From Patescibacteria group bacterium (GTDB taxonomy: Bacteria; Patescibacteriota; Patescibacteriia; Patescibacteriales; UBA12075), in contig JAYEHJ010000091.1 in NCBI GenBank assembly GCA_034659435.1, positions 1 through 35,587 of the forward strand: 35,587 nt of DNA, in the 5' to 3' direction. Both the position numbers and the translations under genes were made by a program. Below are positions 2,162 to 30,697 of the stretch, piece after piece. The notes under the pieces were generated by a model. It saw only the letters and a list, made by a program, of their open reading frames with translations. It did not search any database and was not told the origin of the DNA. The first letter of the stretch is position 1, and the number at the start of each line of letters is the position of its first letter.

Positions 2162-3487
2162 ATGCCAATGTCAGATGATTTTAAAGAAAGGTTGTTTCCG
2201 ATAATAGGTGATGTTTTAGACAAATTTAGACCAAAATTACCAAATTTTCAAGGTATGCTTAATAATAGCATTACAAAAAGCGCTTTAAGTCCGGCCGCGC
2301 ATATTTTGGATGAAACAGGTATTAAAAAAACTATCACTGAAATGAAAAAATTATTGTTTACCGATTACAAGGGCAAAAATTTTTTTGCGGTTAAGGCCAA
2401 CCCTAATTTATGGGTTTTAAAGTTAATGTTGAAAATGGGTTTTGGCCTGGATTGCGCCTCTCCGACCGAACTAGTAAGAGCGCTTAAGGTTGGTGCGCGA
2501 TCAACGGATATAATGCTTACCAGTAATAACACGAGTGCTGAACTGCTTGAGCTGGCTTTGTATGTTGGCTGTATTTTAAATTTGGATGACATCAGTTTTT
2601 TGGAAAAAATTTCCGGGGTTCCTGAGTTAATTTGTTTTCGCTATAACCCGGGCAATCTAAGGACAACAGGAAGCAATAAAATTATCGGTAGTCCCCCGGA
2701 ACAAAAATACGGCGTAAGAGATGATCAGATCGTAGAAGCCTATAAAAGAGCCATTGATTTAGGAGCAAAAAAATTTGGTATTCATGTAATGTATTGTTCA
2801 AATCAAATGGATTATGTAAATTTGGCAGGAACCGCGAAAATGCAGTTAAATGTTGTTCGGAATGTGCAAGACAAACTTGGGATTCAATTTGAGTTTATCA
2901 ATATGGGCGGAGGATTGGGTATTCCTTATCATTACAACCAGCCACCGCTTAACATTTGGTTGATGGCGCAAAGCATCAACGATGCTTTGTATGATTTTGA
3001 AAAAGAAAATGGCTATGTGCCTGATTTTTTTACTGAATCAGGAAGATATGTTATGGGACCGCATGGAGTTCTTGCCGGCAAATGCGTCAATGTGATGCAA
3101 AAATATAAAAAATTTATTGGTGTTGATTTTTGCGATGCCGCTGATATTCTTAGGGCGGTAATCTATAAAGATTCTCACCACGAAATTAAAATTGTTGGCA
3201 AAGAAGAAATGGCAGAGAAGGTTGATATTGTCGGACCTCTTTGTGAAAATTTTAAGCTGGCAGAAAATCGGTTAATGCCGGCAATTATTGAAGGCGATAT
3301 ATTGGTTGTGCAAGACACAGGAGCGCATTGCAAGGCAATGACTTCAAATTACAATGGCTGGGGAGCTTCGCAGGTTTTAGCTTTTCATCCTGATAATTCC
3401 ATTACCAGGGTTGAACGAGCGCAAACTATTGAAGATCTTATGCGAACAGATACGGAATGTGATTTTAAGAAAATTAATTTTAATTAA
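2162..3487 (+). CDS. PLP-dependent fold-III decarboxylase (diaminopimelate/ornithine/arginine decarboxylase family)
   Basis: Motifs FAVKANPN (PLP lysine), GLDCASPTEL and NMGGGLGIPY. ATG 2162 lies 6 nt after AGGAGG (2150-2155), so the GTG 2144 in the ORF track is probably not the start. Confidence 0.75.
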   Translation: MPMSDDFKERLFPIIGDVLDKFRPKLPNFQGMLNNSITKSALSPAAHILDETGIKKTITEMKKLLFTDYKGKNFFAVKANPNLWVLKLMLKMGFGLDCASPTELVRALKVGARSTDIMLTSNNTSAELLELALYVGCILNLDDISFLEKISGVPELICFRYNPGNLRTTGSNKIIGSPPEQKYGVRDDQIVEAYKRAIDLGAKKFGIHVMYCSNQMDYVNLAGTAKMQLNVVRNVQDKLGIQFEFINMGGGLGIPYHYNQPPLNIWLMAQSINDALYDFEKENGYVPDFFTESGRYVMGPHGVLAGKCVNVMQKYKKFIGVDFCDAADILRAVIYKDSHHEIKIVGKEEMAEKVDIVGPLCENFKLAENRLMPAIIEGDILVVQDTGAHCKAMTSNYNGWGASQVLAFHPDNSITRVERAQTIEDLMRTDTECDFKKINFN

Positions 3488-3508: not shown

Positions 3509-4711
3509 ATGGCAAGAAAAAGCAGATTACCAAAAGGCGGAGAAAATCTTTTTCAAGAGATAAAAAAAGTGTGCACGCGAGCGGAAACGAATGACATAAA
3601 GCTTTATAAACTTTCAATTGGACAGCCGACAGGTCCTGCTTTATTGAGTGCAAGACAAGGAGCGGCAGAAGCGATTATGAGCGACGAGGAATCAATGCAC
3701 GAATATCAGGACAATGGTGAGCCGGGAGTCCCCGGTTTTAGCAAGGCATTTGTTCAAGCGAATGTTGGAAGTTTTGATTTGTCGTATGTTGAAGACATTG
3801 ACTACTTGCCGACTCCGGGAATTAAGCCCATGCTCGGACTTATTCCAATGGCGTGCGGGGAAATAAATAATCAGCATGTTCAAATTATGGTTCAAACGAT
3901 GACTGATCCTGGTTATCCTACTCCGAGTATTTGGTGTAATTATTTTAGTTTACCGAACAAACCAATTTATTTTGCTCCATACAACTATTTTATGTTTGAT
4001 CCCCGTAAGCAAGCTTATGGTAAAAATAGCTTATTTATGCTTAATTTTCCACATAATCCGTCTGGAGAAATTGCGACAAAAGGGTGGTGGAAATATTTGT
4101 GCGCGTTTTGTGAAAAACGTAATATTCGCGTATTTAACGACGCAGCATATGCTATGTTGGCTCATTCATCTATTGCCTGCACGCTAACCGAGGTGGCTGT
4201 TGGATTTCCTAATCTTTCGTGGGCAGAAGCTTTTTCCGCTTCAAAAGTAATTAGCAACGGGACTGGTTGGCGAATTGGAGCAATGGCAGGTTCTCCTGAT
4301 TTTATCGGGGATATTGCGACTATTAAAGGGAATACGGACAGTGGCTTTAATGCGGCGTTGGCATCGGGTGTTCTGCGGGCGATTAAGGATGATATGGAAA
4401 ATATTCAATTTATTAGACAGAGATATGAGATACGGATTCGTGCTCTCATAAATATTTTGACTCAAAGAGGAATGCAATTAGCAGTGGAGCCGAAAGCTGG
4501 ATTTTTTACTCTTTGGAAATGTCCCAAAAAGGCATTTGGAGAAGATGTAAGAGACGCGAAACATTTCAATTTTATGATGATTGAACGAACCGGCGTTGTT
4601 GGCGTACATTTTAATCCATATATTAGGTATGCTGTTGTTGCGCCTATTGAGCAAGTGAAGTTTACCGACGCGATTAAAAAAGCTTTTGATAAAGCAAAGG
4701 CAGAATATTAA
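3509..4711 (+). CDS. PLP-dependent class I/II aminotransferase (AspC/DapL-like)
   Basis: 400 aa. Motifs NFPHNPSGE, FNDAAYA and SASKVISNGTGWRIGAMAG (PLP-lysine context). AGGAGG at 3498-3503 precedes the ATG. The gap to the upstream decarboxylase is 21 nt, so the two are likely co-transcribed. Confidence 0.7.
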   Translation: MARKSRLPKGGENLFQEIKKVCTRAETNDIKLYKLSIGQPTGPALLSARQGAAEAIMSDEESMHEYQDNGEPGVPGFSKAFVQANVGSFDLSYVEDIDYLPTPGIKPMLGLIPMACGEINNQHVQIMVQTMTDPGYPTPSIWCNYFSLPNKPIYFAPYNYFMFDPRKQAYGKNSLFMLNFPHNPSGEIATKGWWKYLCAFCEKRNIRVFNDAAYAMLAHSSIACTLTEVAVGFPNLSWAEAFSASKVISNGTGWRIGAMAGSPDFIGDIATIKGNTDSGFNAALASGVLRAIKDDMENIQFIRQRYEIRIRALINILTQRGMQLAVEPKAGFFTLWKCPKKAFGEDVRDAKHFNFMMIERTGVVGVHFNPYIRYAVVAPIEQVKFTDAIKKAFDKAKAEY

Positions 4712-4834: not shown

Positions 4835-7687
4835 ATGCCCAAAAAACAAAAAAAATTAATGATTATAGATGGGAATGCTTTGATTCATCGGAGTTTTCAT
4901 GCCTTGCCGCCTACTATGACGACAAAAGACGGAACAGTTGTGAATGCTGTTTACGGTTTTATGAGTTTTTTAATTAAAGCCATGCGGGATTTGCGCCCGG
5001 AATACGTGGTTTTAACATTGGATAAAAAAGGGCCGACATTCAGGCATAAAAAGTTTAAAGAATATAAAGCAAAGCGGGTGAAAGCGCCGGATGAACTTTA
5101 CGCGCAAATTCCAATGGTAAAAAAACTGGCTATTGACTTTAATATCCCTGTTTTTGAAAAGGACGGTTTTGAGGCGGATGATTTAATTGGGACGATTTCG
5201 TCAGGAATCAGGAATCAAGAATCAGGAATCAAGGATTTAGAATGTATTATCGTTACTGGCGATAAGGATACTTTACAGCTGGTTAATAAAGAAACAAAGG
5301 TTTATTCTATGAGCCGCGGGTTAAGTGACTCTATATTGTATGATGAGGCGCTTGTGAAAGAAAAAATGGGTGTTAACGTCGGGCAGGTGGTTGATTATAA
5401 AGCGTTGAGCGGAGACGCGAGCGATAATATTCCGGGAGTGCCGGGAATTGGCGCCAAAACAGCGGTTGCGCTGTTAAAAGAGTTTGGTAATTTGGATAAT
5501 TTGTACAAACACGCAACTCACAGCTCACAACTCATAACTAAAAAAATTAAGCCTCGTATTTTGGATTTGCTTGTTGAGCATAAAAAAAGCGCTTATTTGT
5601 CGCGCGAATTGGCAACTATTAAATGTGATGTGAAAATTAAATTTAATTTGGAGGCTATGCGATTTTTTGATTTGGATAAAGATAAAATTGTTAAAGCCTT
5701 AAGCGAGCTTGAATTTAAATCTTTATTGCCACGGGTACAAAGTTTGTTTAACGAAGTCGGGTTGGATACAAAAGAAAAAAAACAGCAAGCAACTGAAGAT
5801 AAATTTAAGCGCAATAAGAATAGTTTTAAATATATTTTTGTTAATAATGAAAATAAGTTTAAAATTTTTTTGGCTGAATTAAAAAAACAAAAATACTTTA
5901 CTTTTGACACGGAAACTTCCAGTTTTGATCCGATTACATGTGATTTGCTGGGGGTTAGTTTTTCCTGGAAGAAAGGAGAAGCGCATTTTGTTCAGTTAAG
6001 AATTAAGAATGAAGAATTAAGAATTAAGGATTGTGGTCAAGGGTCATTGTTTGGAGAAACAAAAAAATTTTGTGATGATGACAAAGGAAAGATTTGGCTG
6101 GAAAAATTAAAGCCGATTTTTGCTGATGAAAAAATTAAAAAAACAGCGCATAATGCCAAGTTTGATGCGCGGGTTTTGAAAAATAAAGGCGTTGTTGTTA
6201 ATGGTTTGGATTTTGATACTATGATTGCTTCTTATCTTTTGAATCCGGGAACGCGCGGGCATGGCTTGGACGCGCTTGCTTTTACCGAGTTGGGGTTTGA
6301 AAAAATATCCAAGAATGATTTATTAGGAACAGGAAAAGACAAAAAAACTTTTAGCGAAGTGGAAATGGAAAAATTAAGCCTTTACTCGTGCGAAGACGCG
6401 GATTTTACCGAACGGCTAAGGCATGCTTTAAAGCCAAAATTAAAAAAAGAAAATCTGGAAGCGCTTTTTAAAACAATAGAGATGCCGTTGATTAGCGCGC
6501 TTTCATGCATGGAAGACACCGGCGTAAAAATTAACTCTGAATTTTTGTCAGAAATGAGCAGGAAAATGGCAAAAAAAATCAAAGCGCTTGAAAAAAAAAT
6601 TCATGATTTGGCAGGAGAAATTTTTAACATAAAATCAACAAAACAATTAAAATATATTTTATTTGAAAAAATGGAATTACCGACAGAAGCGATCAAAAAA
6701 ACCAAAACCGGTTTTTCAACAGGCGCGGATGAATTGGAAAAATTAAAAGAATATAGTCCGATAATTTCCTTAATTCAAGAATACAGAGAATTAAATAAAT
6801 TAGTCAGTACATATATTGACGCTTTACCCGCGCTTGTTAATGAAAAAACCAAACGAGTTCATACAAGCTATAATCAAACAATTACAGCTACCGGCAGATT
6901 GTCCTCCACAAAACCGAATTTACAGAATATTCCGGTTAAAACAGATTTGGGAAATGAAATCAGGAAAGCGTTTATCGCGGACAAGGGCTATAAATTATTG
7001 GCTTTGGACTATTCACAAATTGAATTAAGGCTTGCGGCGCATATGTCCGGCGACAAAAAGATGATTAAAGCGTTTAATAATGGGGCGGATATTCACAGCG
7101 CGACAGCGGCGGAAATAAATAATGTTTCTTTAGATGAAGTTAGCGCGAAGATGCGCCGAGAGGCAAAAGCTATAAATTTTGGCATTCTTTACGGGCAAGG
7201 CCCGCGCGGACTTTCCCGCGGAGTTAATATTCCTTACGCGCGAGCCAAGGATTTTATTGATAATTATTTTAAAGTCTATTCGGGAATAAAAACATATGTG
7301 AATGAAAAAATCGCGTTCGCGCGCGAATATGGCTACGCGGAAACAATGTATAAAAGAAAAAGATATTTGCCTGAAATCAATTCAAGTATTTTACAGGTAA
7401 AAAAAGGCGCCGAGCGCATGGCGATAAATACTCCGATACAAGGAACAGCCGCGGATATAATTAAAATCGCCATGATTGAAGTTATGGATAAAGTTTGCAG
7501 CAGCAAAGCAAAAATGCTTATGCAGGTTCATGATGAGTTGATTTTTGAAGTTAAAGATAGCGAGGTTAAAAAAGAAGCTGAGAAAATTAAAAAAATCATG
7601 GAAAATGTTGTTAAACTAGACGTTCCGATTATTGTTGATGTTAAGGCCGGGGAGAATTGGGGGGAGATGGGGTCAATTCTCAATTAA
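4835..7687 (+). CDS. polA: DNA polymerase I (5' nuclease + 3'-5' exonuclease + polymerase domains)
   Basis: 950 aa. 5' nuclease: EADDLIGT...TGDKD and GVPGIGAKTA. Exo motifs: FDTETSS, NAKFDARVL, YSCEDADFT. Pol motifs: DYSQIELR, RREAKAINFGILYG, QVHDEL. Confidence 0.95.
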   Translation: MPKKQKKLMIIDGNALIHRSFHALPPTMTTKDGTVVNAVYGFMSFLIKAMRDLRPEYVVLTLDKKGPTFRHKKFKEYKAKRVKAPDELYAQIPMVKKLAIDFNIPVFEKDGFEADDLIGTISSGIRNQESGIKDLECIIVTGDKDTLQLVNKETKVYSMSRGLSDSILYDEALVKEKMGVNVGQVVDYKALSGDASDNIPGVPGIGAKTAVALLKEFGNLDNLYKHATHSSQLITKKIKPRILDLLVEHKKSAYLSRELATIKCDVKIKFNLEAMRFFDLDKDKIVKALSELEFKSLLPRVQSLFNEVGLDTKEKKQQATEDKFKRNKNSFKYIFVNNENKFKIFLAELKKQKYFTFDTETSSFDPITCDLLGVSFSWKKGEAHFVQLRIKNEELRIKDCGQGSLFGETKKFCDDDKGKIWLEKLKPIFADEKIKKTAHNAKFDARVLKNKGVVVNGLDFDTMIASYLLNPGTRGHGLDALAFTELGFEKISKNDLLGTGKDKKTFSEVEMEKLSLYSCEDADFTERLRHALKPKLKKENLEALFKTIEMPLISALSCMEDTGVKINSEFLSEMSRKMAKKIKALEKKIHDLAGEIFNIKSTKQLKYILFEKMELPTEAIKKTKTGFSTGADELEKLKEYSPIISLIQEYRELNKLVSTYIDALPALVNEKTKRVHTSYNQTITATGRLSSTKPNLQNIPVKTDLGNEIRKAFIADKGYKLLALDYSQIELRLAAHMSGDKKMIKAFNNGADIHSATAAEINNVSLDEVSAKMRREAKAINFGILYGQGPRGLSRGVNIPYARAKDFIDNYFKVYSGIKTYVNEKIAFAREYGYAETMYKRKRYLPEINSSILQVKKGAERMAINTPIQGTAADIIKIAMIEVMDKVCSSKAKMLMQVHDELIFEVKDSEVKKEAEKIKKIMENVVKLDVPIIVDVKAGENWGEMGSILN
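5201..5242 (+). repeat. 7-nt periodic array, purine-rich flavour, in-frame in the polA 5' nuclease domain
   Basis: TCAGGAA TCAGGAA TCAAGAA TCAGGAA TCAAGGA TTTAGAA, translated SGIRNQESGIKDLE. Confidence 0.85.
5508..5542 (+). repeat. 7-nt periodic array, CA flavour, in-frame in polA
   Basis: AACACGC AACTCAC AGCTCAC AACTCAT AACTAAA, translated HATHSSQLITK. It shares a 15-nt identical core with the reverse complement of 9217-9244. Confidence 0.85.
5996..6037 (+). repeat. 7-nt periodic array, purine-rich flavour, in-frame in the polA 3'-5' exonuclease domain
   Basis: TTAAGAA TTAAGAA TGAAGAA TTAAGAA TTAAGGA TTGTGGT, translated LRIKNEELRIKDCG. Confidence 0.85.
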
Positions 7688-7714
7688 AAATTACGAATTA
7701 CGAATTATTCATTT
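7687..7714 (+). repeat. 7-nt periodic array, AATTACG flavour, starting at the polA stop codon
   Basis: AAAATTA CGAATTA CGAATTA TTCATTT. Confidence 0.75.
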
Positions 7715-7749: not shown

Positions 7750-9144
7750 ATGTCAAGTCTTCAATATAAAAATTTAGAAAAATTAAAAAATACAAAGTGC
7801 ACCCCAAGGGCATTTCCTGCGGAGTACATTTTGGGTAAAAAAATCTGCATTCTTGGATTTGGGATTGAAAATCAGGCGCTGGTTGAATTTTTGTTGAACA
7901 AAGAAATAGATTGTGAAATAACTATTTGCGATGCGCGGGAAAATACCGTAGGAACGCGTCGTGGCGCGTTCCTACGCAACAAAAACATCAAATGGCGCTT
8001 AGGCAAAAATTATGACAAAAATCTTAATGAATATGATATTATTTTCCGCATTGCAGGGTATCCGCTATTTTCTCCTGAAATTAAAAAAGCTCAAGAAACA
8101 GGAGTTGAGATTTCCAGCCCGATAAAATTGTTTTTTGAAATATGTCCGACAAAAAATATTATCGGCGTAACAGGGACAAAAGGCAAAGGCACGACATCAT
8201 CTTTGATTTATGAAATTTTAAAAGCAGGCGGCAAGCAAGCTTTTTTTGGCGGGAATATTGGAATTCCTGTATTTAGTTTTTTTGAAAAAATTAAAAAAGA
8301 CGATTATGTTGTTTTGGAACTTTCCAGTTTTCAGCTTGAAAATTCGCGAATTAATCCAAAAGTAGCCGTAATTACAAATTTTTTTCGCGAACATTTAAAA
8401 CCTGCCGATCCGAATAATCCAAACCACCATAAAACCCTTGAAGATTATTGGCAGGCGAAATTTAATATTATACGTTCACAAACAAAAAATAATTTTGCGA
8501 TTATTAATAAAAATTTAAAATTAAAAGTTAAAGACAGTTTTAAAAATATTTTTAACAACAACAGCAAAAGAATTTATTTTAACAAATCCGATTTAAAATC
8601 ACAGTTGATCGGCGAGCATAACAAAGAGAATATCGCGGCGGCTTTTGAGGCTGCTAAAATTTTAAAAATCAATAAGAAACATACTATTAAGGCGATTGCG
8701 AATTTTAAAGGGCTTGAACATCGTTTGGAATTCGCGGGAAAGAAAAATTCAATTGATTTCTATAACGACAGTTTTGCCACTATTCCGGAATCAGCGGTTA
8801 CAGCCTTAAAATCATTTAACTGCCCGATAATTTTAATAGCCGGCGGCGCTGACAAGGGTAATGATTTTAAGGATATGGCAAAAATGATTAAGAAAAAAGT
8901 TAAATTTTTAATTTTGTTTACCGGCAAAGGCTCTGTTAGGCTGAAAAATCGTTTGCGCGAAATATCATTTTCCGATAATAAAATTGTTATGGCTGACACC
9001 ATGGATAAAGCAATAAAAATTGCCGTTAAAAATGCTGGCGCCGGAGACGCGGTTTTATTATCTCCCGGCTGCGCGAGTTTTGGAGTGTTTAAAAATTATA
9101 AAGAGCGCGGGCGTTTGTTTAAGGATGAGGTTGGCAAGATGTGA
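7750..9144 (+). CDS. murD: UDP-N-acetylmuramoyl-L-alanine--D-glutamate ligase
   Basis: Motifs GVTGTKGKGTTSS, GGNIG, ELSSFQLE, GLEHRLEF, SPGCASF. The start is uncertain. ATG 7750 is the ORF-track start. An in-frame TTG at 7831 is preceded by GGAG (7821-7824) and would give a canonical short N-terminus, MGKKICILGFG. Confidence 0.85.
   Translation: MSSLQYKNLEKLKNTKCTPRAFPAEYILGKKICILGFGIENQALVEFLLNKEIDCEITICDARENTVGTRRGAFLRNKNIKWRLGKNYDKNLNEYDIIFRIAGYPLFSPEIKKAQETGVEISSPIKLFFEICPTKNIIGVTGTKGKGTTSSLIYEILKAGGKQAFFGGNIGIPVFSFFEKIKKDDYVVLELSSFQLENSRINPKVAVITNFFREHLKPADPNNPNHHKTLEDYWQAKFNIIRSQTKNNFAIINKNLKLKVKDSFKNIFNNNSKRIYFNKSDLKSQLIGEHNKENIAAAFEAAKILKINKKHTIKAIANFKGLEHRLEFAGKKNSIDFYNDSFATIPESAVTALKSFNCPIILIAGGADKGNDFKDMAKMIKKKVKFLILFTGKGSVRLKNRLREISFSDNKIVMADTMDKAIKIAVKNAGAGDAVLLSPGCASFGVFKNYKERGRLFKDEVGKM
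7802..7824. repeat. family C copy (2 nt shorter) in the 5' end or leader of murD
   Basis: CCCCAAGGGCATTTCCTGCGGAG followed by TA. If ATG 7750 is used, it translates as TPRAFPAE. Confidence 0.7.
7947..7976. repeat. perfect 12-bp stem / 6-nt loop palindrome inside the murD CDS
   Basis: CGTAGGAACGCG-TCGTGG-CGCGTTCCTACG. It is 30 nt (10 codons) and encodes part of TVGTRRGAFLR. Confidence 0.85.
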
Positions 9145-9216
9145 AATTTTTGAGATTGTTAAGATTTTGTTTGCGATGATTTTTTAAATAAAAGTTTTTA
9201 TTGTTAAACGCGGCTT

Positions 9217-9244
9217 GTTATAAGTTGTGAGTTGCGTGTTACGA
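9217..9244 (+). repeat. 7-nt periodic array, GU flavour on the sense strand, 5 nt upstream of the murI ATG
   Basis: GTTATAA GTTGTGA GTTGCGT GTTACGA. Confidence 0.85.
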
Positions 9245-9249
9245 GAAAC

Positions 9250-10056
9250 ATGATTGGAGTCTTTGATTCCGGGCTTGGCGGATTGACTGTTTTAAAAAGT
9301 TTTTTGCGTGTTTTGCCCGATTACAATTATATATATTTTGGCGACAGCGCCCGCGCGCCTTACGGCGGACGCTCGCAAGATGCGATATACGGCTATACAA
9401 AAGAGGCCGTTGATTTTTTGTTCGCGCGAAAGTGCGAGTTAATTATTATCGCGTGCAATTCCGCGTCTTCGCGGGCTTTGAGAAAAATCCAACAAGAGTA
9501 TTTGCCGCAAAAATATCCGGGAAAAAATGCGCTTGGCGTAATCATGCCATTAGTTGAAGAAGCTGCTAAAAATGAAAATATCAAGCGCGTTGGCGTAATT
9601 GGCACGCGAGCGGCAATTGAGTCAAATGCTTATAAAATAGAATTAGAAAAATTAAATCCTGATTTGGAAATTTTTCAAAAAAGCGCGCCTTTGCTTGTGC
9701 CTTTAATTGAAGAGGGGTGGGCCAATAAGCCGGAAACAAAAAAAATTCTTAAAAAATATCTGCATACGCTTAAGCTTAAACAAGTACAAATTTTAATTCC
9801 GGCATGTACGCATTATCCGATTCTTTTCAAGGAAATTAAAAAAATTATGACAAATCGCTGCCAAGTTTTAAATAGCAATAAAATTATCGCGGATAGCTTA
9901 AAAAACTATTTACCGAGGCATCCGGAATATAAAATTAATCCTGTTGAAAATTCAAGCGTAAATTTTTTCACAACCGATGATCCGGAACGATTTCGCATAA
10001 TGGCGAAAAAGTTTTTAGATATTGATGTTGAGAAAATTGAAAAGATTTGTTTTTAA
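9250..10056 (+). CDS. murI: glutamate racemase
   Basis: MIGVFDSGLGGLTVL N-terminus plus IIACNSAS and PACTHYP catalytic-Cys motifs. ATG 9250 is preferred over the upstream TTG 9232, which lies inside a repeat array. Confidence 0.9.
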   Translation: MIGVFDSGLGGLTVLKSFLRVLPDYNYIYFGDSARAPYGGRSQDAIYGYTKEAVDFLFARKCELIIIACNSASSRALRKIQQEYLPQKYPGKNALGVIMPLVEEAAKNENIKRVGVIGTRAAIESNAYKIELEKLNPDLEIFQKSAPLLVPLIEEGWANKPETKKILKKYLHTLKLKQVQILIPACTHYPILFKEIKKIMTNRCQVLNSNKIIADSLKNYLPRHPEYKINPVENSSVNFFTTDDPERFRIMAKKFLDIDVEKIEKICF

Positions 10057-10122: not shown

Positions 10123-10614
10123 TTACATTTGCTCCAATATCTTTAATTCCGGCTCTTCTCTTTTAAAATCCCAAACCGCGAAAGTGGCTTTTTGAAAAAG
10201 CGCGCCCAGAGTTCCGGGGTTAACAAATAAATAATTGTTTTTTTTCTCTATCCATGGCTTGTGGGTATGTCCGTAAAAAATTATATCGCACTCGCCTTTT
10301 TTTAAAACATAATCCAATAAAAACGGCTCATGGCAAAGGCCGATTTTTTTTTCCGCTAATTTGAAATTAGCAATCCGGCCCGAATAAATTATATTTTTGT
10401 ATTTTTTCGGCTCCTCTTCATCAAAAATTTCCATATTGCCATGCACTAAATATATTTCTTTTTGAAAATTATTTGCCAAAAATTTTAATGTCTCGGAATT
10501 TGTTACGTCCCCACAGCAAAAAACTTTTTCAATATTATTTGCCGCGCAATAAGCAAGGCATTTTTTTAAATTAGGGATATTATCGTGAATATCGGAGATT
10601 ATAGCAACTCTCAT
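10123..10614 (-). CDS. YfcE/MJ0936-family metallophosphoesterase
   Basis: 163 aa. Motifs ISDIHDN, CCGDV, HGNME, YGHTH. Confidence 0.75.
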   Translation of the reverse strand: MRVAIISDIHDNIPNLKKCLAYCAANNIEKVFCCGDVTNSETLKFLANNFQKEIYLVHGNMEIFDEEEPKKYKNIIYSGRIANFKLAEKKIGLCHEPFLLDYVLKKGECDIIFYGHTHKPWIEKKNNYLFVNPGTLGALFQKATFAVWDFKREEPELKILEQM

Positions 10615-10643: not shown

Positions 10644-11810
10644 TTAGTTTATATTTTGCAATTTTGATGCTATTTCATAAATTATGCCAATGGCAAATAA
10701 TATCATCAACAAATAAACAAGCGCGTTTGGCGGCTTGGCCGTGAACATCGGCATTTTGTTTTTTTTCTTTTTTATTTTTAAAAATACGGTAAGCATTACA
10801 ATCGCGCAGAAACCGCCGCCAACAGCGCCTATAAAGCTTATAACTTCGATTAAGTCGGTAATTCCCGCCAAATATAAAATATAAGGCGTAAAAACCGCCA
10901 AAGCCCAAGAAAGCGTTTTGTTAATTTTAAAATCCCACCAAAGGGTTTCCTTGACTGATTCCGCCACTCCGATTATTGAAGTCATTATGCTGAATAATCC
11001 GAAAACCAGAACTAAAGTAATAACGCCGTTAGCAAGAATCTTCTGAACGCCGACAAGCGCGTCAGGAGTGGTGTCAGCGCCTGAAATTCCGACTATTACA
11101 AATACAAATAAAGTTAAAATCAATGAAGACAAAATCATGCTTGTCCTGATAACGCTTTTAAACAAAACCGCGTCTTTTTTTACCAGCCGTCCGACTATGG
11201 GCAAAGAGCCGTTCCCGTCCAAAGACATTAGCATGGCGCCGAACGGAAGCAAAGTATTTTTCCAATCAATTATTAGATAATTTTCCGCTTCAATCGCGTT
11301 CCAGCCTTTGTAGGCCATTATGCCAATAACAAAAAAAAGTAACGCCGACATATACAGCTCCGCTTTTGAAATCGCTCTTATGCCGCGGAATACTACAATC
11401 GCCGCTAAAATTACAACAATGCTTGCGTACAAAATTAAATTTTCTCCAAAAAACCGGCCCAGCAATTGCCTTAAAAAAATACTGGAAATAATAATATAAG
11501 CCAGTAAAGCGCCGTAATTTCCTATTAACTTAGCTAGAAAAACCGCCCATTTTCCTTTTAATCCCAAATATTTTTCAACATAACCGGGCAGGCGGTGAAA
11601 AGAGCCGTTGATCACGATCATATTGGCGTAAACCAAATGCAGCAAATATTGGGCCAGCCCCAGAACTACGAGTAAAACCGCGAATGCCAGCCAGCCGGCT
11701 CTAACCGTCAAATACGGCAGGCCAAACATGCCGACTCCGATAATATAACCGACCATCACCGCTATAGCCTGAAAATATTTTTTGTTTTTTTTATGTTTTT
11801 TTTTGAACAT
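10644..11810 (-). CDS. amino-acid permease (multi-pass membrane transporter, Trp/Tyr-permease-like)
   Basis: About 11 hydrophobic segments. N-terminal AVMVGYIIGVGMFGLPY resembles amino-acid transporter family N-termini. ATG 11810 is chosen because the longer ORF (to 11849) would overlap the upstream gene's stop at 11827. Confidence 0.6.
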   Translation of the reverse strand: MFKKKHKKNKKYFQAIAVMVGYIIGVGMFGLPYLTVRAGWLAFAVLLVVLGLAQYLLHLVYANMIVINGSFHRLPGYVEKYLGLKGKWAVFLAKLIGNYGALLAYIIISSIFLRQLLGRFFGENLILYASIVVILAAIVVFRGIRAISKAELYMSALLFFVIGIMAYKGWNAIEAENYLIIDWKNTLLPFGAMLMSLDGNGSLPIVGRLVKKDAVLFKSVIRTSMILSSLILTLFVFVIVGISGADTTPDALVGVQKILANGVITLVLVFGLFSIMTSIIGVAESVKETLWWDFKINKTLSWALAVFTPYILYLAGITDLIEVISFIGAVGGGFCAIVMLTVFLKIKKKKNKMPMFTAKPPNALVYLLMILFAIGIIYEIASKLQNIN

Positions 11811-11826
11811 TAAATATTGAAAAATA

Positions 11827-12396
11827 CTATTTCCTAATATTAATATCATAATTTATCTGCTCAATCTTTCTTAAGTTGCCTTTGGCTTGATCGTATTTGG
11901 TGCGCAAATAGCCTGTCATGTCAAATTCAACCAATTCATGCAGAATATCGCTTATAATATTTTTAATTTTTTTCACCTCCGCGTAATTTCCGGCTGACGC
12001 TTGATTAACCGCCCTTCTCACAAGCTCGCCTGTTAAATCGCAAATTCCGCCTAAATAGCTTTCATAGCTTAATTTAATATTTTTAAATTTATCAATTTTT
12101 TTATTATTCAAAACCATATAAAAAGTTTTTGCTTCAGCGTATTCTTCAACGCCGGCCCTGTATGAACCTTCTTGGTTTAAACGAACATAGCCGAATTTCT
12201 TTTCCAATTTTATTAATATTTTTTCAATTTCATTTAAACTCGCAAGAGCCTTTTCTTTATCAAAACGATGCAAAGCGAAAATCACCCGCTTTGAATCATG
12301 CAAAACAACATTTGCCAAACTGATAATCTGCCTGCGCTCGCTATTATTTTCCAAATAGTCCTTTTTTAATTTTTGGATAAACTTCTTGTTAATCAT
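11827..12396 (-). CDS. translin-family protein
   Basis: All-helical ~190 aa with the translin/TRAX-type signature YLGGICDLTGELVRRA. ATG 12396 is preferred over GTG 12411. Confidence 0.55.
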   Translation of the reverse strand: MINKKFIQKLKKDYLENNSERRQIISLANVVLHDSKRVIFALHRFDKEKALASLNEIEKILIKLEKKFGYVRLNQEGSYRAGVEEYAEAKTFYMVLNNKKIDKFKNIKLSYESYLGGICDLTGELVRRAVNQASAGNYAEVKKIKNIISDILHELVEFDMTGYLRTKYDQAKGNLRKIEQINYDINIRK

Positions 12397-12411
12397 TTTT
12401 TTATATGACAC

Positions 12412-12446
12412 ATATCACGCAACACACATCACACAACACGCATCAA
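12412..12446 (-). repeat. 7-nt periodic array, GU flavour on the sense (-) strand, just upstream of the translin-family start
   Basis: Plus strand: ATATCAC GCAACAC ACATCAC ACAACAC GCATCAA. Confidence 0.85.
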
Positions 12447-12481
12447 ATTAATTTTTAATTCGTAATTTGTAATTGAAAATT
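12447..12481 (-). repeat. 7-nt periodic array, AATTACG flavour, directly after the PilB/GspE stop codon
   Basis: Plus strand: ATTAATT TTTAATT CGTAATT TGTAATT GAAAATT. It is contiguous and in phase with the 12412-12446 array. Confidence 0.8.
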
Positions 12482-12483
12482 GA

Positions 12484-14202: not shown

Positions 14203-14215
14203 ATTTATATTTAAA

Positions 14216-14402
14216 GGGACTGCCGCCGAATGCCAGTTTTGGCATAAATTTTCAAATTTTGAGTAAACTTTTCTTAAAAAAATTTTGCTTATGTGATAAT
14301 ATACGCCCCGTAGGAAGTGCCCTTGGGGTAGGCCAAATTTTTTTAAGATAAATTTGCCAAAATTTGGGAATTTAGGGCAAACTGGCATTCGGCGACAGTC
14401 CC
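14216..14402. mobile_element. 187-bp MITE-like element, family A (terminal inverted repeats GGGACTGCCGCCGAATGCCAGTTTTGGCA / CAAACTGGCATTCGGCGACAGTCCC)
   Basis: The inverted termini were read directly. ATTTAAA lies on both flanks. The interior is non-coding and carries a nested family-C hairpin at 14304-14328. The element lies in the leader of the PilB/GspE gene. Confidence 0.8.
14304..14328. mobile_element. family C 25-nt hairpin micro-element (inverted) flanked by TA/TA, nested in the family A MITE
   Basis: TA[CGCCCCGTAGGAAGTGCCCTTGGGG]TA. Confidence 0.75.
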
Positions 14403-14463
14403 ATTTAAAATAAAGAAGACAAAAAGCCTTCTTTATTTAATATTTATAAATTTAATATTTATT

Positions 14464-17465: not shown

Positions 17466-17506
17466 ATGCCACTAACTATAATTTATTGCTATTCGGCGGC
17501 AGTCCC
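17459..17506. repeat. family A degenerate/solo right end
   Basis: TTGGCAAATGCC...ATTCGGCGGCAGTCCC followed by ATTTAAA, the same flank as the 14402 end. Confidence 0.6.
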
Positions 17507-17510
17507 ATTT

Positions 17511-17551
17511 AAAAAGCCGCGGAAAATTTAAAAATTTTTCCGCGGCTTTTT
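17511..17551 (-). terminator. rho-independent terminator after rpsA (bidirectional palindrome)
   Basis: AAAAAGCCGCGGAAAAATTT/AAAAATTTTTCCGCGGCTTTTT. Confidence 0.75.
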
Positions 17552-19849: not shown

Positions 19850-19876
19850 TTATGTTATATATGTAGCAAAGATTTT

Positions 19877-19924
19877 ATGGGACTGTCGCCGAATGCCAAA
19901 ACCGGCATTCGGCGACAGTCCCAT
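19877..19924. repeat. family A short form: perfect 21-bp-stem palindrome
   Basis: ATGGGACTGTCGCCGAATGCC-AAAACC-GGCATTCGGCGACAGTCCCAT. Confidence 0.9.
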
Positions 19925-19966
19925 ATGAAATGAATTATGTCAACGTGTTGTACGAGATGTATCTAA

Positions 19967-20151: not shown

Positions 20152-20235
20152 GAATTTATATTTAGGCTAGTTATCTAATTTAAGATACACTAGCTTTTTT
20201 TATACTAATTTTATTTATTAATTTACATATATTAT

Positions 20236-20263
20236 GTGTCGCGTGATATATGTTATGTGAAAT
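20236..20263 (+). repeat. 7-nt periodic array, GU flavour, 3 nt upstream of the nusA ATG
   Basis: GTGTCGC GTGATAT ATGTTAT GTGAAAT. Confidence 0.8.
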
Positions 20264-20266
20264 TAT

Positions 20267-21679
20267 ATGTCAGAATTATCAAGTGCTATCAAACATGTTT
20301 GCGAGGAAAAAGGCTTGGATATGGACGCGGTAATATCTACCATTGAATACGCTTTGGCTGCCGCTTATCGCAAGGATTTTGGGCAAAAAAATCAAAATAT
20401 TATAGTTGAATTTGATACTGAAAAAGGGACTTCAAAAGTTTATGATGTTAAAACCGTGGTTGAGGATATTTTGGAAGAAGATGAACAGGAAAAAGAAAAA
20501 ATAAAGGATGAAAAAGTAAAAAGGGGCAAAGCTCCTGATGTTAAAAAAACGGATGGTAAAAAAGATGAAAAATCGGCTGAAGATAAAAATAAAAAAGAAG
20601 AAGATAAAAAGGACGAATCCGCCACCGCTAAAAAGTCGGCGGACTTGCCCGCCATAGCTTCAGCGGCGGAAGGCGAGGAAAGAAAATTTAATCCTAAAAC
20701 TGAAATTCAGATTAGTGATGCCAAAATGCTTAAAAAAACCGCGAAAATTGATGATGAAATTAAAACCAAGCTTGAAGTGCCGGATGCTTACGGACGCATG
20801 GCAGCGCAAACCGCCAAGCAGGTAATTATTCAAAGATTGCGGGAGGCAGAGCGGGAAATGATTTTTAATGATTTTAAAGACAAAGAACACGAGGTTGTTA
20901 GCGGCGTTATTCAAAGGCGCGAAGGCCGGATTATTTTGGTTGATTTGGGCAAGTCAGTCGGCGTTATTCCGCCGGATGAGCAAATTATCGGCGAGAAATA
21001 TAATACAGGCGACAGGGTTAAAGTTTATGTTAAAGAAGTTACTTTAAAGCCTAGGGGGCCGGAAATTATTCTTTCCCGCACTTCGGAAGAAATTTTGAAA
21101 AAAATATTTTATTTGGAAATTCCTGAAATTTCCAATGGCTTAATTGAGTTCAAAAGCGTGGCGCGCGAGGCAGGGTCGAGATCAAAGGTTGCCGTTTGGA
21201 CTGATTCGGAAAATGTTGATCCAATAGGTTCCTGCGTCGGCCAGCGCGGCTCTCGAATTCAAACTATTATCAATGAGCTTGGCGGGGAAAAAGTTGATAT
21301 CATTGAATATGATGACGATCTTAGCAGATATATTTCCAATGCTTTGTCTCCGGCAAAAATCGGTAAAATTGATATGAATGAAGAGACAAAAAAAGCCACA
21401 GTTACCGTTCCCAATGATCAGCTGTCTTTGGCAATCGGCAAAAGCGGACAAAACGCGCGTCTGGCAGCCAAGCTGACCGGTTGGAAAATTGATATTGTGG
21501 AAGATAAAGAGAATCAGGAATCAGGAATTAAGAATCAAGGAGAAGCTTCGGAAGATACCAAAAATGTTGATGATGTTGAAAATGCCGAAGAGAAAAACGA
21601 TGAACAGAATAAAGAGAAAATATCAAAAGATTCTGAAAATGTTAAAGCAGGCGAAGAAAAAGATGATGAAAAAAAATAA
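20267..21679 (+). CDS. nusA: transcription termination/antitermination factor NusA (with charged insertion and acidic tail)
   Basis: NTD, then RMAAQTAKQVIIQRLREAERE, S1 domain, and KH1/KH2 (GSCVGQRGSRIQ, AIGKSGQNARLAAKLTGWKIDI). Confidence 0.9.
   Translation: MSELSSAIKHVCEEKGLDMDAVISTIEYALAAAYRKDFGQKNQNIIVEFDTEKGTSKVYDVKTVVEDILEEDEQEKEKIKDEKVKRGKAPDVKKTDGKKDEKSAEDKNKKEEDKKDESATAKKSADLPAIASAAEGEERKFNPKTEIQISDAKMLKKTAKIDDEIKTKLEVPDAYGRMAAQTAKQVIIQRLREAEREMIFNDFKDKEHEVVSGVIQRREGRIILVDLGKSVGVIPPDEQIIGEKYNTGDRVKVYVKEVTLKPRGPEIILSRTSEEILKKIFYLEIPEISNGLIEFKSVAREAGSRSKVAVWTDSENVDPIGSCVGQRGSRIQTIINELGGEKVDIIEYDDDLSRYISNALSPAKIGKIDMNEETKKATVTVPNDQLSLAIGKSGQNARLAAKLTGWKIDIVEDKENQESGIKNQGEASEDTKNVDDVENAEEKNDEQNKEKISKDSENVKAGEEKDDEKK
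21514..21541 (+). repeat. 7-nt periodic array, purine-rich flavour, in-frame in the nusA C-terminal tail
   Basis: TCAGGAA TCAGGAA TTAAGAA TCAAGGA, translated QESGIKNQG. Confidence 0.85.
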
Positions 21680-21696
21680 AAATTAATTATTTTTTT

Positions 21697-21731
21697 ATGC
21701 CGCATGTTATATGCTGCGTGTTGCGTAATTA
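21697..21731 (+). repeat. 7-nt periodic array, GU flavour, 10 nt upstream of the ppaC ATG
   Basis: ATGCCGC ATGTTAT ATGCTGC GTGTTGC GTAATTA. Confidence 0.85.
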
Positions 21732-24666: not shown

Positions 24667-24759
24667 TTTATAGTCAAGGAATTTGAATACCCCAAGGGCA
24701 CTTCCTTCGGGGCGTATTCCCGACTACTGTTAGTGCCCCTTGCGGGTATAACTTGTAAA
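24667..24759 (-). repeat. family B two-hairpin element (~66-nt core) carrying a nested 27-nt family-C insertion
   Basis: Aligns end to end with the reverse complement of 27723-27786, except for the insert at 24690-24716. Lies between tRNA-Ala and tRNA-Leu and is co-oriented with them. Confidence 0.8.
24690..24714. mobile_element. family C 25-nt hairpin micro-element flanked by TA/TA
   Basis: TA[CCCCAAGGGCACTTCCTTCGGGGCG]TA. The paralogous site in the other family B copy reads ...AAATA|TTCCC with a single TA. Confidence 0.8.
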
Positions 24760-25739: not shown

Positions 25740-25760
25740 GGCATTCGGCGGCAGTCTCAT
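25740..25760. repeat. family A solo right end
   Basis: GGCATTCGGCGGCAGTCTCAT. Confidence 0.6.
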
Positions 25761-25803
25761 GTTAGCATAAGCGATGATATTGCGCGAATTGGGGATTGTA
25801 GGC

Positions 25804-29362: not shown

Positions 29363-30697
29363 CTAAAAGGGACTGTCGCCAAATGCCAAAACTGGCATTC
29401 GGCGACAGTCCCTTATTTTTCGCAAATTTTTTAAATCTTCCTCTGATTGCTTGATATATTCTTTGTCCCTTTTCACAATATCGGGGTTGACTTGCAAAGA
29501 CATTTTATTCAGACCTAATAACTCCATTCCGCTAAGCGATCTTACTCTTGACAGGGCGACATAGCCCATACCATAATCAAAAGCGTCCCGCAAATCAACA
29601 ATCATCTCATCAAGGCTCATGCCCTGGCTTTTATGAACCGTAATCGCCCATGCCAGCCGCAAAGGCACTTGGCTTATTTTGGCAACCGTTTCATTGCCCT
29701 CCTCAACCGCCCACTCTCTTGGATAAGCGATAATTTGCCTATCGTCATTAGTTTTAACAATCGGATAATTATCAAATTCGCTAAAGCCGATAATTTTCCC
29801 AAGCGTGCCATTGACATAATGGGCAAAGCCGGATTCGCTGAATTTATTTTTTACAAACATTACTACCGCCCCTTTTTTTAAAACAAGCCTTGACGGCGCC
29901 ATGCAATTTTTTATTAAAAAATCAACCAATTGCTTTCGTCCTTTTTTATAAGATGATTTCATTTGATAGACTGTTTCGCTTTGTTTTATTTTTGCCAATT
30001 CAAAATCGTTTATGGCGTTAACGTCCTTGTTATTGGTGAACAATTTTGTCGGAGTAATATTTCCGCAAACCGGCCGGTTAAGCCTTGATTTTAATGTCAT
30101 CAAAGTATCTTTATCTATCTTGTTATTTCTGATGCTATTTAAAACTTTGATAAATTTTTTATCGCTATGCCTGTGCTGTTCATTTAAATAGCAGACTTTT
30201 AAACAAGATTCATTCCAAACGTTTGCCTTAAAAGCGTATTCATTATTTTCTTCTTTGCCGTTGACCGGCGGTAATTGAAAAAAATCACCGCAAAAAATAA
30301 CCTGAATTCCGCCAAAAGGCGCGATGCTGTTTTTGAAAGACATGCAAATATTGTTAACCAAGTCCAGCCTGTCGGCATCAAGCATTGATATCTCATCAAT
30401 AATCAATACTTTTGTTTTAAGCATCCTGTTCTTTAGATATCTTTTATTTAAAATGGTTTTAAATTCCGCTTTGCTTAATTGCTTGGCGATTCCCATCCCG
30501 CACCAGGAATGAATTGTTATGCCGCCGATATGCGTAGCCGCGATGCCTGTTGAAGCCGTAACTGCCGCGCTAATATGCTTTGACTTTAAATAGCTGATAT
30601 ATTTATTTAAAAGAAAAGTCTTCCCGCTTCCGGCAGGACCTGTCAAAAAAACATTAGCGCCCAGTTTTAATAATTGAAAAGCTTCTTCTTGTTTCAT
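29363..30697 (-). CDS. SF1B Pif1/RecD-like ATP-dependent DNA helicase
   Basis: Walker A GPAGSGKTF, Walker B LIIDEISM, C-terminal ITVHKSQGMSLD and YVALSRV motifs. The last 16 codons and the stop are encoded by a palindromic repeat. Confidence 0.8.
   Translation of the reverse strand: MKQEEAFQLLKLGANVFLTGPAGSGKTFLLNKYISYLKSKHISAAVTASTGIAATHIGGITIHSWCGMGIAKQLSKAEFKTILNKRYLKNRMLKTKVLIIDEISMLDADRLDLVNNICMSFKNSIAPFGGIQVIFCGDFFQLPPVNGKEENNEYAFKANVWNESCLKVCYLNEQHRHSDKKFIKVLNSIRNNKIDKDTLMTLKSRLNRPVCGNITPTKLFTNNKDVNAINDFELAKIKQSETVYQMKSSYKKGRKQLVDFLIKNCMAPSRLVLKKGAVVMFVKNKFSESGFAHYVNGTLGKIIGFSEFDNYPIVKTNDDRQIIAYPREWAVEEGNETVAKISQVPLRLAWAITVHKSQGMSLDEMIVDLRDAFDYGMGYVALSRVRSLSGMELLGLNKMSLQVNPDIVKRDKEYIKQSEEDLKNLRKIRDCRRMPVLAFGDSPF
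29367..29414. repeat. family A short form overlapping the 3' end of the helicase CDS
   Basis: AAGGGACTGTCGCCAAATGCC-AAAACT-GGCATTCGGCGACAGTCCCTT, with one A/C mismatch in the stem. Confidence 0.9.

Follow-up and report, generated by a model that had tools for sequence, protein, structure and literature searches.

Short tandemly repeated repetitive (STRR) heptanucleotides of cyanobacteria are said to have been described by Mazel et al. in 1990, and Rickettsia palindromic elements (RPEs), reportedly described by Ogata et al. in 2000, are said to be inserted in frame in conserved proteins. RPEs are palindromic mobile elements of 100-150 nt with a defined consensus. Heptamer repeats of the GGGAATC/GGGGAYT type are found in Xanthomonas and Nostoc (Rehm et al. 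2015, PMC4692102), and the over-representation of heptamers, with a hypothesis based on slippage and the polymerase footprint, is attributed there to Mrazek et al. 2007 (PMC4692102). Direct repeats of TAACTGA occur in marine Beggiatoaceae, some cyanobacteria and Bacteroidetes (MacGregor 2015, PMC4679880), in sets of 2-6 copies located a few nucleotides upstream of the starts of genes that lack Shine-Dalgarno motifs, and often overlapping the upstream stop codon (PMC4679880). Reverse copies of TAACTGA are found in frame in open reading frames (ORFs), the forward strand having stops in all frames; the repeats have no known mobility mechanism, show no functional pattern in the downstream genes, and were proposed to be protein-binding cis-elements (PMC4679880). 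Simple sequence repeats of 1-7 nt are also the basis of phase-variable contingency loci, for instance the heptanucleotide repeats of Haemophilus hmw (PMC8262952). Here we consider an array of 7-nt units that is read in frame within polA, the gene for DNA polymerase I (Pol I), on contig JAYEHJ010000091.1 of a Patescibacteria group bacterium (35,587 nt; the whole stretch is called the window below), together with its inverted counterpart in front of murI. A full-text search found no literature on heptamer arrays in the Candidate Phyla Radiation (CPR), Patescibacteria or Parcubacteria, which is not proof of novelty.

A first-pass annotation of the window took the polA array and the murI-leader array to be copies of the same dispersed DNA repeat, rather than regulatory sites that evolved independently. 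One part of this view stands, as repeats exist at the level of DNA throughout this clade, with arrays of the same unit in leaders, at stop codons and within ORFs, in both orientations. The part that does not stand is that of one discrete element in two copies, because homology stops at the array ends, terminal inverted repeats and target duplications are absent, and in four metagenomes the k-mer depth of both arrays is that of single-copy sequence. The reading that we prefer, with a probability of about 0.6, is that the polA segment is one member of a population of heptanucleotide tandem repeats that extends across the genome and the clade, and that it is neither a regulatory site nor a discrete mobile element.

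A heptamer array read through a loop of Pol I

The polA gene of the window is a 950-aa ORF (4835-7687, + strand) that by Pfam encodes a full-length DNA polymerase I, with 5_3_exonuc_N, 5_3_exonuc (H3TH, residues 182-281), DNA_pol_A_exo1 and DNA_pol_A domains; a look-up of the exact protein matched no record. Positions 5508-5542 of the window form an imperfect array with a period of 7 nt, AACACGC AACTCAC AGCTCAC AACTCAT AACTAAA, consisting of head-to-tail 7-nt units in at least three copies, to which Tandem Repeats Finder assigns 5514-5539 (period 7, 3.7 copies, 84% matches) and our custom array detector a score of 10. Codons 5510-5542 are translated in the polA frame as HATHSSQLITK, which follows GIGAKTAVALLKEFGNLDNLYK just past the H3TH motif and falls within the 5_3_exonuc/H3TH domain as delimited by Pfam. 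The sequence, coordinates, peptide and position after the helix-hairpin-helix had all been described exactly in the first-pass annotation, and Pfam confirms its assignment of the gene to polA.

The segment had also been called a coding insertion, and it is one. When aligned with solved Pol I structures (M. smegmatis 6VDE and Taq 1TAQ/1BGX), THSSQLIT is an insertion of 8 residues between the helix that follows the H3TH motif and the next helix, and the HATHSSQLITK region is an insertion of 6 aa relative to PolA of baseline relatives. By these alignments the array is shown to occupy a predicted permissive surface loop, where it would be read through in frame and add 6-8 residues to the protein.

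A clade-wide population of period-7 arrays

The nearest relatives of the window's PolA come from metagenome-assembled Patescibacteria (Parcubacteria/Falkowbacteria), with identities of 83-85% for the loci L001-L003 and of about 60% for many others. A census with the custom array detector, covering periods of 4-12 in the window and 80 PolA loci of relatives (1.21 Mb), found 128 period-7 arrays, against 2-17 for each other period and 0 period-7 arrays in shuffled sequence. CPR loci have 1.1-1.75 arrays per 10 kb, and loci whose labels place them in other phyla have 0.30. The majority of arrays (83 of 128) are located inside long ORFs, which for 54 of these arrays are polA or murD verified by homology; the other 45 are intergenic, mostly straddling stop codons or just upstream of starts. 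The highest density measured, 3.96 per 10 kb, is that of murD, where in-frame heptamer arrays are found at two recurrent relative positions, 0.18-0.20 and 0.50-0.58, and where orthologs with arrays occur in L010, L011, L018, L023, L027, L029, L030, L041, L046, L054, L055, L062 and L069. Heptamer arrays are a clade-wide, DNA-level feature of this CPR group.

Units tend to be shared within a locus. Counting units as shared if they differ by at most one mismatch, in any rotation and on either strand, 28% of same-locus pairs share a unit against 13% of pairs across loci, a value reached by 0 of 1000 label permutations. Of the pairs with identical units within a locus, 11 are direct and 10 inverted, nearly an even split, and among them are leader/ORF pairs like that of polA and murI; for instance, AAGACGT arrays flank genes and also sit in frame in murD of L054 and L062, and L016 has the same unit in two of its PolA loops, 2 and 3.

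The orientation of the polA array relative to leader arrays has a simple explanation in the genetic code. Read on its complementary strand (TTTAGTTATGAGTTGTGAGCTGTGAGTTGCGTGTT), the polA array meets a stop in each of the three frames (TGA, TGA and TAG), and as the GTGAGTT strand is thus closed in all frames, only the AACTCAC strand can code, which accounts for the inverted relation of polA to the leaders. Closure of the antisense strand in all three frames is found for 34 of the 83 ORF arrays. The murI-leader array itself, with one open frame, is an exception.

The murI-leader partner and the role of chance

The partner of the polA array (Table 1) stops 6 nt before the ATG (9250) of ORF 9250-10056, which by Pfam encodes a murI-like Asp/Glu racemase, with murD (7750-9144) and polA located upstream on the same strand. 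Its reverse complement is TCGTAACACGCAACTCACAACTTATAAC. An exact inverted identity of 15 nt connects polA 5508-5522 with 9226-9240, past which polA has one extra 7-nt unit (GCTCACA), followed by ACTCATAAC in the one array and ACTTATAAC in the other, with 8 of 9 positions matching. The inverted match, the 15-nt identity and the extra unit are thus confirmed as first reported. MAFFT also gives an ungapped alignment of the two arrays (23/29), and because alignments of tandem arrays are ambiguous in this way, 15 identical positions plus one extra unit is one of two equally valid readings.

One question raised by such a match is how often it would arise in DNA of this composition, and the shuffling test named for this purpose in the first-pass annotation has a mixed outcome. 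Dinucleotide shuffles of the window contain a mean of 8.9 exact inverted 15-mers, or 0.54 at comparable G+C, and 43% of shuffles contain at least one of matching G+C; furthermore, with polA 5500-5550 as a fixed query for local alignment, 4 of 200 shuffles equal the observed score. The 15-nt identity, taken alone, is only marginal, near chance, and does not exceed expectation. The array family does exceed it. With up to two mismatches allowed, the 15-mer has 3 matches in the window against 0.04 expected, the third of them (12414-12428) inside another start-proximal array, the leader of a Translin-family gene; the pattern GTTN4GTTN4GTTN4GTT occurs 2 times against 0.00 expected; and the window has 6 period-7 arrays where shuffles have 0.45. 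The unit family can be written AAC-W-C-R-Y / R-Y-G-W-GTT, with G-T/A-T-R-Y-G-W as its leader form, and five window arrays align with the polA arrays of L001 and L002 in a single heptamer register, whose AAC/AC columns, spaced 7 nt apart, are invariant. The family relation between the polA array and the murI-leader array is real, given that each partner is an array of heptamers, that five arrays share a register, and that the 15-mer is enriched when up to two mismatches are allowed. Direct copying between the two sites is not proven.

The same figures frame the possibility that two unrelated low-complexity heptamer arrays came to share a 15-mer with no family relation. The count of 0.54 inverted 15-mers per shuffled window and the 4/200 shuffles that reach the alignment score are in keeping with it, as is a scan for the 15-mer in the metagenome collection, which returned at least 120 matches, mostly in unrelated contexts that are ascribed to chance. 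A rough estimate also makes two consecutive shared units likely if both arrays draw on a set of four unit variants. It is countered by the fact that both partners are period-7 arrays, which are rare (6 in 35.6 kb), that the match resumes at 8/9 after exactly one unit, and that three further leader arrays share the register. Furthermore, of the 128 arrays in relatives only about 3 are of the polA/murI unit family, so that four or five members within one 35-kb window would not be expected. We regard chance as unlikely, if still deserving of weight. About 12-15 of the at least 120 metagenome matches sit in arrays of the polA/murI unit family, and arrays that mix GTGAGTT and GCGTGTT units are found on metagenome contigs with a G+C of 0.30-0.66, sometimes as adjacent inverted arrays (L097, L140 and L195); the unit family is thus not confined to this genome.

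Inheritance and replacement of the loop arrays

Arrays recur in three loops of PolA, at window residues ~123-133 (loop 1), 226-236 (loop 2, the array described above) and 388-400 (loop 3), with units that vary by genome. At loop 2 the units are of the AACTCAC type in the window and L001 and of a decayed AACA type in L002, and L016 and L023 have perfect arrays of (AAAACAC)x5 and (GAAGTCA)x5, respectively; many relatives lack an array at this site and have 6 residues fewer. Loop 3 has an array in nearly every genome, built from more than 12 different units. Comparison of the window with L001 shows the same two positions changed in every loop-3 unit (GAATTAA in the window, CAAATTA in L001), which requires homogenisation or wholesale replacement rather than point mutation. 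All units of an array are thus shown to be able to change together between close relatives, a form of concerted evolution.

Loop 2 has a different history. Its array is orthologous in the window and L001-L003, is of equal length in the window, L001 and L002, and differs by scattered substitutions, the window and L001 being about 71% identical over the array (by hand count) against about 82% over the whole gene. The array is therefore old, decaying and vertically inherited under relaxed constraint; it predates the split from L001-L003 and has evolved faster than the remainder of PolA. In L001, the closest syntenic relative, the murI leader is without a GT-rich array; in its place are a long hairpin element and an array of the roughly 9-nt AATCCCAAT type, and the leader copy in the window is therefore lineage-specific. 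The expectation of the first-pass annotation that peptide and nucleotide partner go together in other genomes of the clade is accordingly not borne out, as L001-L003 have the polA array and the L001 leader has no partner for it. The murD-murI spacer of L001 contains a perfect hairpin element of 100 nt that is not in the window. The murI leader matches the window's own polA array better (24/25, gapped) than the polA array of L001 (18/23, by hand count), which would fit copying or homogenisation between the polA and murI-leader arrays after the split, though this is not proof.

The window locus is present in four brine-metagenome runs. In the assembled contigs of these four metagenomes the polA array is identical, without indels and at single-copy k-mer depth; a variant strain in run X3 has a murI-leader array with 2 single-nucleotide differences and no indel.

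GT-rich arrays in front of genes

GT-rich heptamer arrays precede four genes of the window, murI, a Translin-family gene (11827-12396, - strand, by Pfam), nusA and a DHH/DHHA2 gene (Table 1). In all four cases the GT strand is the sense strand, the array ends 5-20 nt before the ATG with a short A/T-rich spacer between them, and the start lacks a Shine-Dalgarno motif. The DHH/DHHA2 ORF is called from ATG 21697 and its conserved N-terminus (MLQKIYIIGHKSPDLDS) starts at ATG 21742; the latter is probably the true start, with the first 15 codons, array included, being leader. In the window at large, a clear GGAGG Shine-Dalgarno motif is found at only 2 of about 21 genes (2162 and 3509), and most starts have A/T-rich upstream sequence with TATAAT-like boxes 10-30 nt upstream. 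Short or absent leaders are suggested by this layout for most window genes.

The longest of the GT-rich arrays directly precedes the Translin-family gene. Eukaryotic Translin binds GT-rich single-stranded DNA and GU-rich RNA. A gene for a PIF1-like helicase is also present in the window (Table 1), and any connection of the Translin-family or PIF1-like protein with repeat DNA is pure conjecture.

Could the GT-rich arrays be functional 5'-leader cis-elements, for instance sites bound by an RNA- or ssDNA-binding protein such as S1, Csp, CsrA or the neighbouring Translin-family protein, with the polA copy being incidental or a decoy? The four leaders agree in sense strand and in distance to the ATG (4/4), their genes lack Shine-Dalgarno motifs, the Translin-family gene itself follows the longest array, and the layout is analogous to that of TAACTGA repeats (PMC4679880). 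The orthologous murI leader of L001 nevertheless has a different array, the units differ between leaders, and arrays occur equally in both orientations and inside ORFs. An Rfam search of the window returned only tRNAs and nothing at the arrays, so that neither an Rfam match nor the L001 leader points to a conserved cis-regulatory leader, and scans for sigma-70 promoters and terminators on the sense strand of three array leaders found none. Furthermore, the array leaders are more structured, with a minimum free energy of -9.3 to -9.8 for three of the four arrays (-4.7 for the DHH leader at its called start, 21697); the median of other window leaders is near -4. A cis-element function for the arrays is quite unlikely on this evidence, and a regulatory or punctuation role for spacer arrays is retained as a minority alternative. 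The notion that arrays serve as unstructured leaders or landing pads was rejected, since a more stable fold than that of other leaders is predicted for three of the four.

Pairing at the level of RNA is another way in which the two arrays could be connected, the polA segment forming a duplex with the murI leader, either in trans or on a shared polA-murD-murI transcript, and so coupling expression. Such a duplex would have 15 perfect base pairs and 8 more adjoining the murI start, at a predicted energy of -33 to -36 kcal/mol, and the three genes share a strand and are separated by short spacers, with nothing terminator-like found in 9050-9300. Other 50-nt windows reach -34.7, however, the pairing is not conserved in L001, and a search of RNA runs did not find the locus. 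With an energy that is no outlier and no conservation in L001, a specific polA-murI duplex was rejected, and a function of this kind is extremely improbable.

Other arrays and palindromic elements

Besides the loop-2 array, the polA gene contains in-frame arrays in loops 1 and 3 and a further array at its stop codon (Table 1). The loop-1 array is an insertion of 5 aa relative to Taq and M. smegmatis Pol I. The third unit of the loop-3 array is GAATGAA in place of GAATTAA, and an in-frame TAA is thereby removed, which is visible selection on the reading frame. Two GAATYAR arrays in polA and one in nusA are 81-90% identical to each other over 31 nt. In three brine metagenomes k-mers of the AAGAATT array (5996-6030) reach depths of 800-1170 and those of its flanks about 17, and this unit must therefore be massively repeated in the community; many contigs with differing flanks run into an (AAGAATT)n array, and assemblies break there.

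The arrays at the stop codons of polA and pilB are 89% identical over 35 nt and have the same sense relative to the gene. AATTAAA/AATTACG-type arrays at the polA stop are found in the window, in L001 and in at least 12 relatives in all, extending to 117 nt in L017 (12868-12984), and whole-unit changes in copy number separate the array of the window from those of L001 and L017. A unit of the AATTAMG type places TAA in every frame after 3 copies and thus acts as an all-frame stop. In L001 the AATTACG array after polA is broken by a 22-nt insert (ACCCGTCAAGCGAGTACAAGCG).

Table 1. Repeat arrays and related features of the window, with comparable features of relatives
Feature	Position	Strand	Context
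polA loop-1 array, GAATCAG/GAATCAA, 4.4 copies	5201..5231	+	second in-frame polA array; encodes SGIRNQESGIK, loop of 5' nuclease N-domain
polA loop-3 array, GAATTAA, 5.3 copies	5994..6032	+	third in-frame polA array; encodes LRIKNEELRIKD, loop of 3'-5' exonuclease domain
Array AATTAAA/AATTACG	7682..7707	+	contains polA stop codon, fills start of polA-murD spacer
murI-leader array GTTATAA GTTGTGA GTTGCGT GTTACGA	9217..9244	+	GT-rich heptamers; reverse-complement partner of polA array
Translin-family leader array GATGCGT GTTGTGT GATGTGT GTTGCGT GATATGT	12410..12444	-	GT-rich; 14 nt upstream of ATG 12396
Array AATTACA/AATTACG	12448..12483	-	directly after stop codon of pilB (T2SSE)
nusA leader array ATTATGT GTCGCGT GATATAT GTTATGT	20231..20262 (approx.)	+	GT-rich, heptamer-like, weaker family member; just before ATG 20267
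nusA in-frame array, GAATCAG	21511..21539	+	C-terminal tail; 90% identical over 31 nt to polA 5205-5235
DHH/DHHA2 array ATGCCGC ATGTTAT ATGCTGC GTGTTGC GTAATTA	21697..21731	+	head of ORF; family member (GCGTGTT = rotation of GTTGCGT)
Palindromic mini-element (...CACCCCAAGGGCATTTCC...), GC-rich, 58 nt	7786-7843; 31924-31981		83% identical
Further mini-element sites	14301-14330; 24688-24717		
GC-rich perfect hairpins (GGGACTGTCGCCGAATGCC...GGCATTCGGCGACAGTCCC)	14213-14245; 14379-14410; 17491-17514; 19876-19926; 25743-25766; 29366-29416		gene ends
PIF1-like helicase gene	29363-30697	-	
L001, broken AATTACG array	5327-5395		after polA
L002, inserts with 22-nt core	3245-3340; 4031-4200		PolA loops
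L003, inserts with 22-nt core	10319-10410; 11135-11310		PolA loops

Palindromic elements of other kinds are also found in these genomes. Copies of a GC-rich mini-element sit in frame at the MurD N-terminus and in UvrA, between its interaction and DNA-binding domains; MurD of L001 lacks the element, and at 7787 the depth rises and contigs break, and the element behaves like an in-frame miniature inverted-repeat transposable element (MITE) of the Rickettsia RPE type. A family of GC-rich perfect hairpins at gene ends is REP-like (repetitive extragenic palindrome) or terminator-like, and one member overlaps the start called for pilB. Both L002 and L003 have, in frame in two of their PolA loops, a palindromic 22-nt core (GGAACAGGGCACTGCCCTGTTC, peptide RRNRALPC), and further GC-rich in-frame inserts are found in loop 2 of L003 and loop 3 of L023.

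Such elements, in murD and uvrA of the window and in PolA loops 1 and 3 of L002 and L003, make it conceivable that a discrete miniature mobile element (MITE, REP or RPE-like) was inserted in polA and, inverted, before murI. The polA/murI arrays themselves consist of direct repeats only, however, with no inverted termini, hairpin or flanking duplication, their homology ends at the array borders, and their depth is single-copy. The polA array is, moreover, ancient and orthologous in relatives while the leader copy is lineage-specific. Insertion of a discrete element is very improbable.

Origin and significance of the arrays

How would a population of heptamer arrays be maintained? We propose that arrays are born and renewed by slipped-strand mispairing that would favour 7-nt units, and that units may be carried from one permissive site to another by ectopic templated repair, template switching or gene conversion. 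Arrays would then be retained by selection only in spacers and tolerant loops, and in-frame stops would be edited out. The murI-leader array would, on this model, be a younger member of the polA array's unit family. The pairing of polA and murI shows membership of the same array family and possibly copying, and not a shared discrete element or function.

Several observations weigh against this explanation. The mechanism of spread is something that we infer rather than observe. No copy-number variation of the polA array was seen in the four metagenomes, where assembled contigs would hide rare variants, or among the window, L001 and L002. The AAC-N-C-R-C family is scarce near polA in relatives, being found only in the L001 ortholog, L016 and L045. 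Two further patterns hint at roles under selection: the common sense and the 5-20-nt distance from the ATG in all four GT-rich leaders, and the retention of AATTAMG arrays at the polA stop down to 47% PolA identity, which would suit a selected spacer role.

A bolder proposal is that CPR bacteria may actively write or copy short heptamer arrays into double-strand DNA at many sites, the arrays serving as punctuation and the polA/murI pair being a snapshot of inverted copying over 3.7 kb. Some enzyme or repair pathway would be responsible, with the Translin-family and PIF1-like proteins as conceivable players, and the cell would use the arrays as all-frame stops after genes, GT-rich arrays before starts that lack Shine-Dalgarno motifs, and 7-residue-periodic loops in essential enzymes. 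We consider this a long shot.

The match between polA and murI is itself small, and the repeat is of a known kind, found here in a new clade and unusually often inside genes. The dominant simple repeat in these tiny CPR genomes has a 7-nt unit, two thirds of its arrays are in frame in genes, orthologous loops of Pol I, MurD and NusA among them, and array units are replaced in concert between close relatives. For annotation, the arrays matter because they mimic coiled-coil-like 7-residue repeats and fragment assemblies, and contigs of the source metagenomes break there. For protein evolution, they steadily supply essential enzymes with loop insertions. The old question of why bacteria favour heptamers among long simple sequence repeats becomes testable by comparison, as hundreds of independent array births at the same sites are available in CPR genomes.

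Comparison with known repeat systems

The polA array resembles contingency loci in having a unit that is not a multiple of 3, such that gain or loss of one unit would shift the frame. Unlike contingency loci, it lies in a housekeeping polymerase gene and shows no indels in contigs of the four runs, and as it is imperfect and decaying it would be a poor substrate for slippage. With RPEs it shares the tolerance of repeat DNA as an in-frame surface peptide insertion in an essential protein of a reduced-genome bacterium; unlike RPEs, the polA segment is not palindromic and consists of direct tandem repeats.

The likeness to STRR sequences and to the Xanthomonas and Nostoc repeats consists of an excess of period 7, few unit families per genome, occurrence on both strands and sometimes in inverted pairs, and differences in length and sequence between close relatives at the same intergenic site. 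Those repeats are mainly intergenic and, in the case of Xanthomonas and Nostoc, G-rich and G-quadruplex-forming, whereas the present arrays are rich in A/T or in AC/GT, are short, with 3-5 units, and lie for the most part in frame inside genes.

The TAACTGA repeats, of all described systems the nearest to this one, offer a parallel for layout, in that forward (GT) copies lie just before starts, a reverse copy lies in the polA ORF, and the complement of the coding strand is closed in all frames. In contrast to the single unit of that system, dozens of units are in use here, GTTGCGT, GTGAGTT and similar ones, and the host is a CPR clade. The two systems also differ in where they meet coding sequence: the ORF copies of Beggiatoaceae are few and mostly at protein ends, whereas two thirds of the arrays in this clade lie within ORFs, in internal loops of PolA, MurD and NusA.

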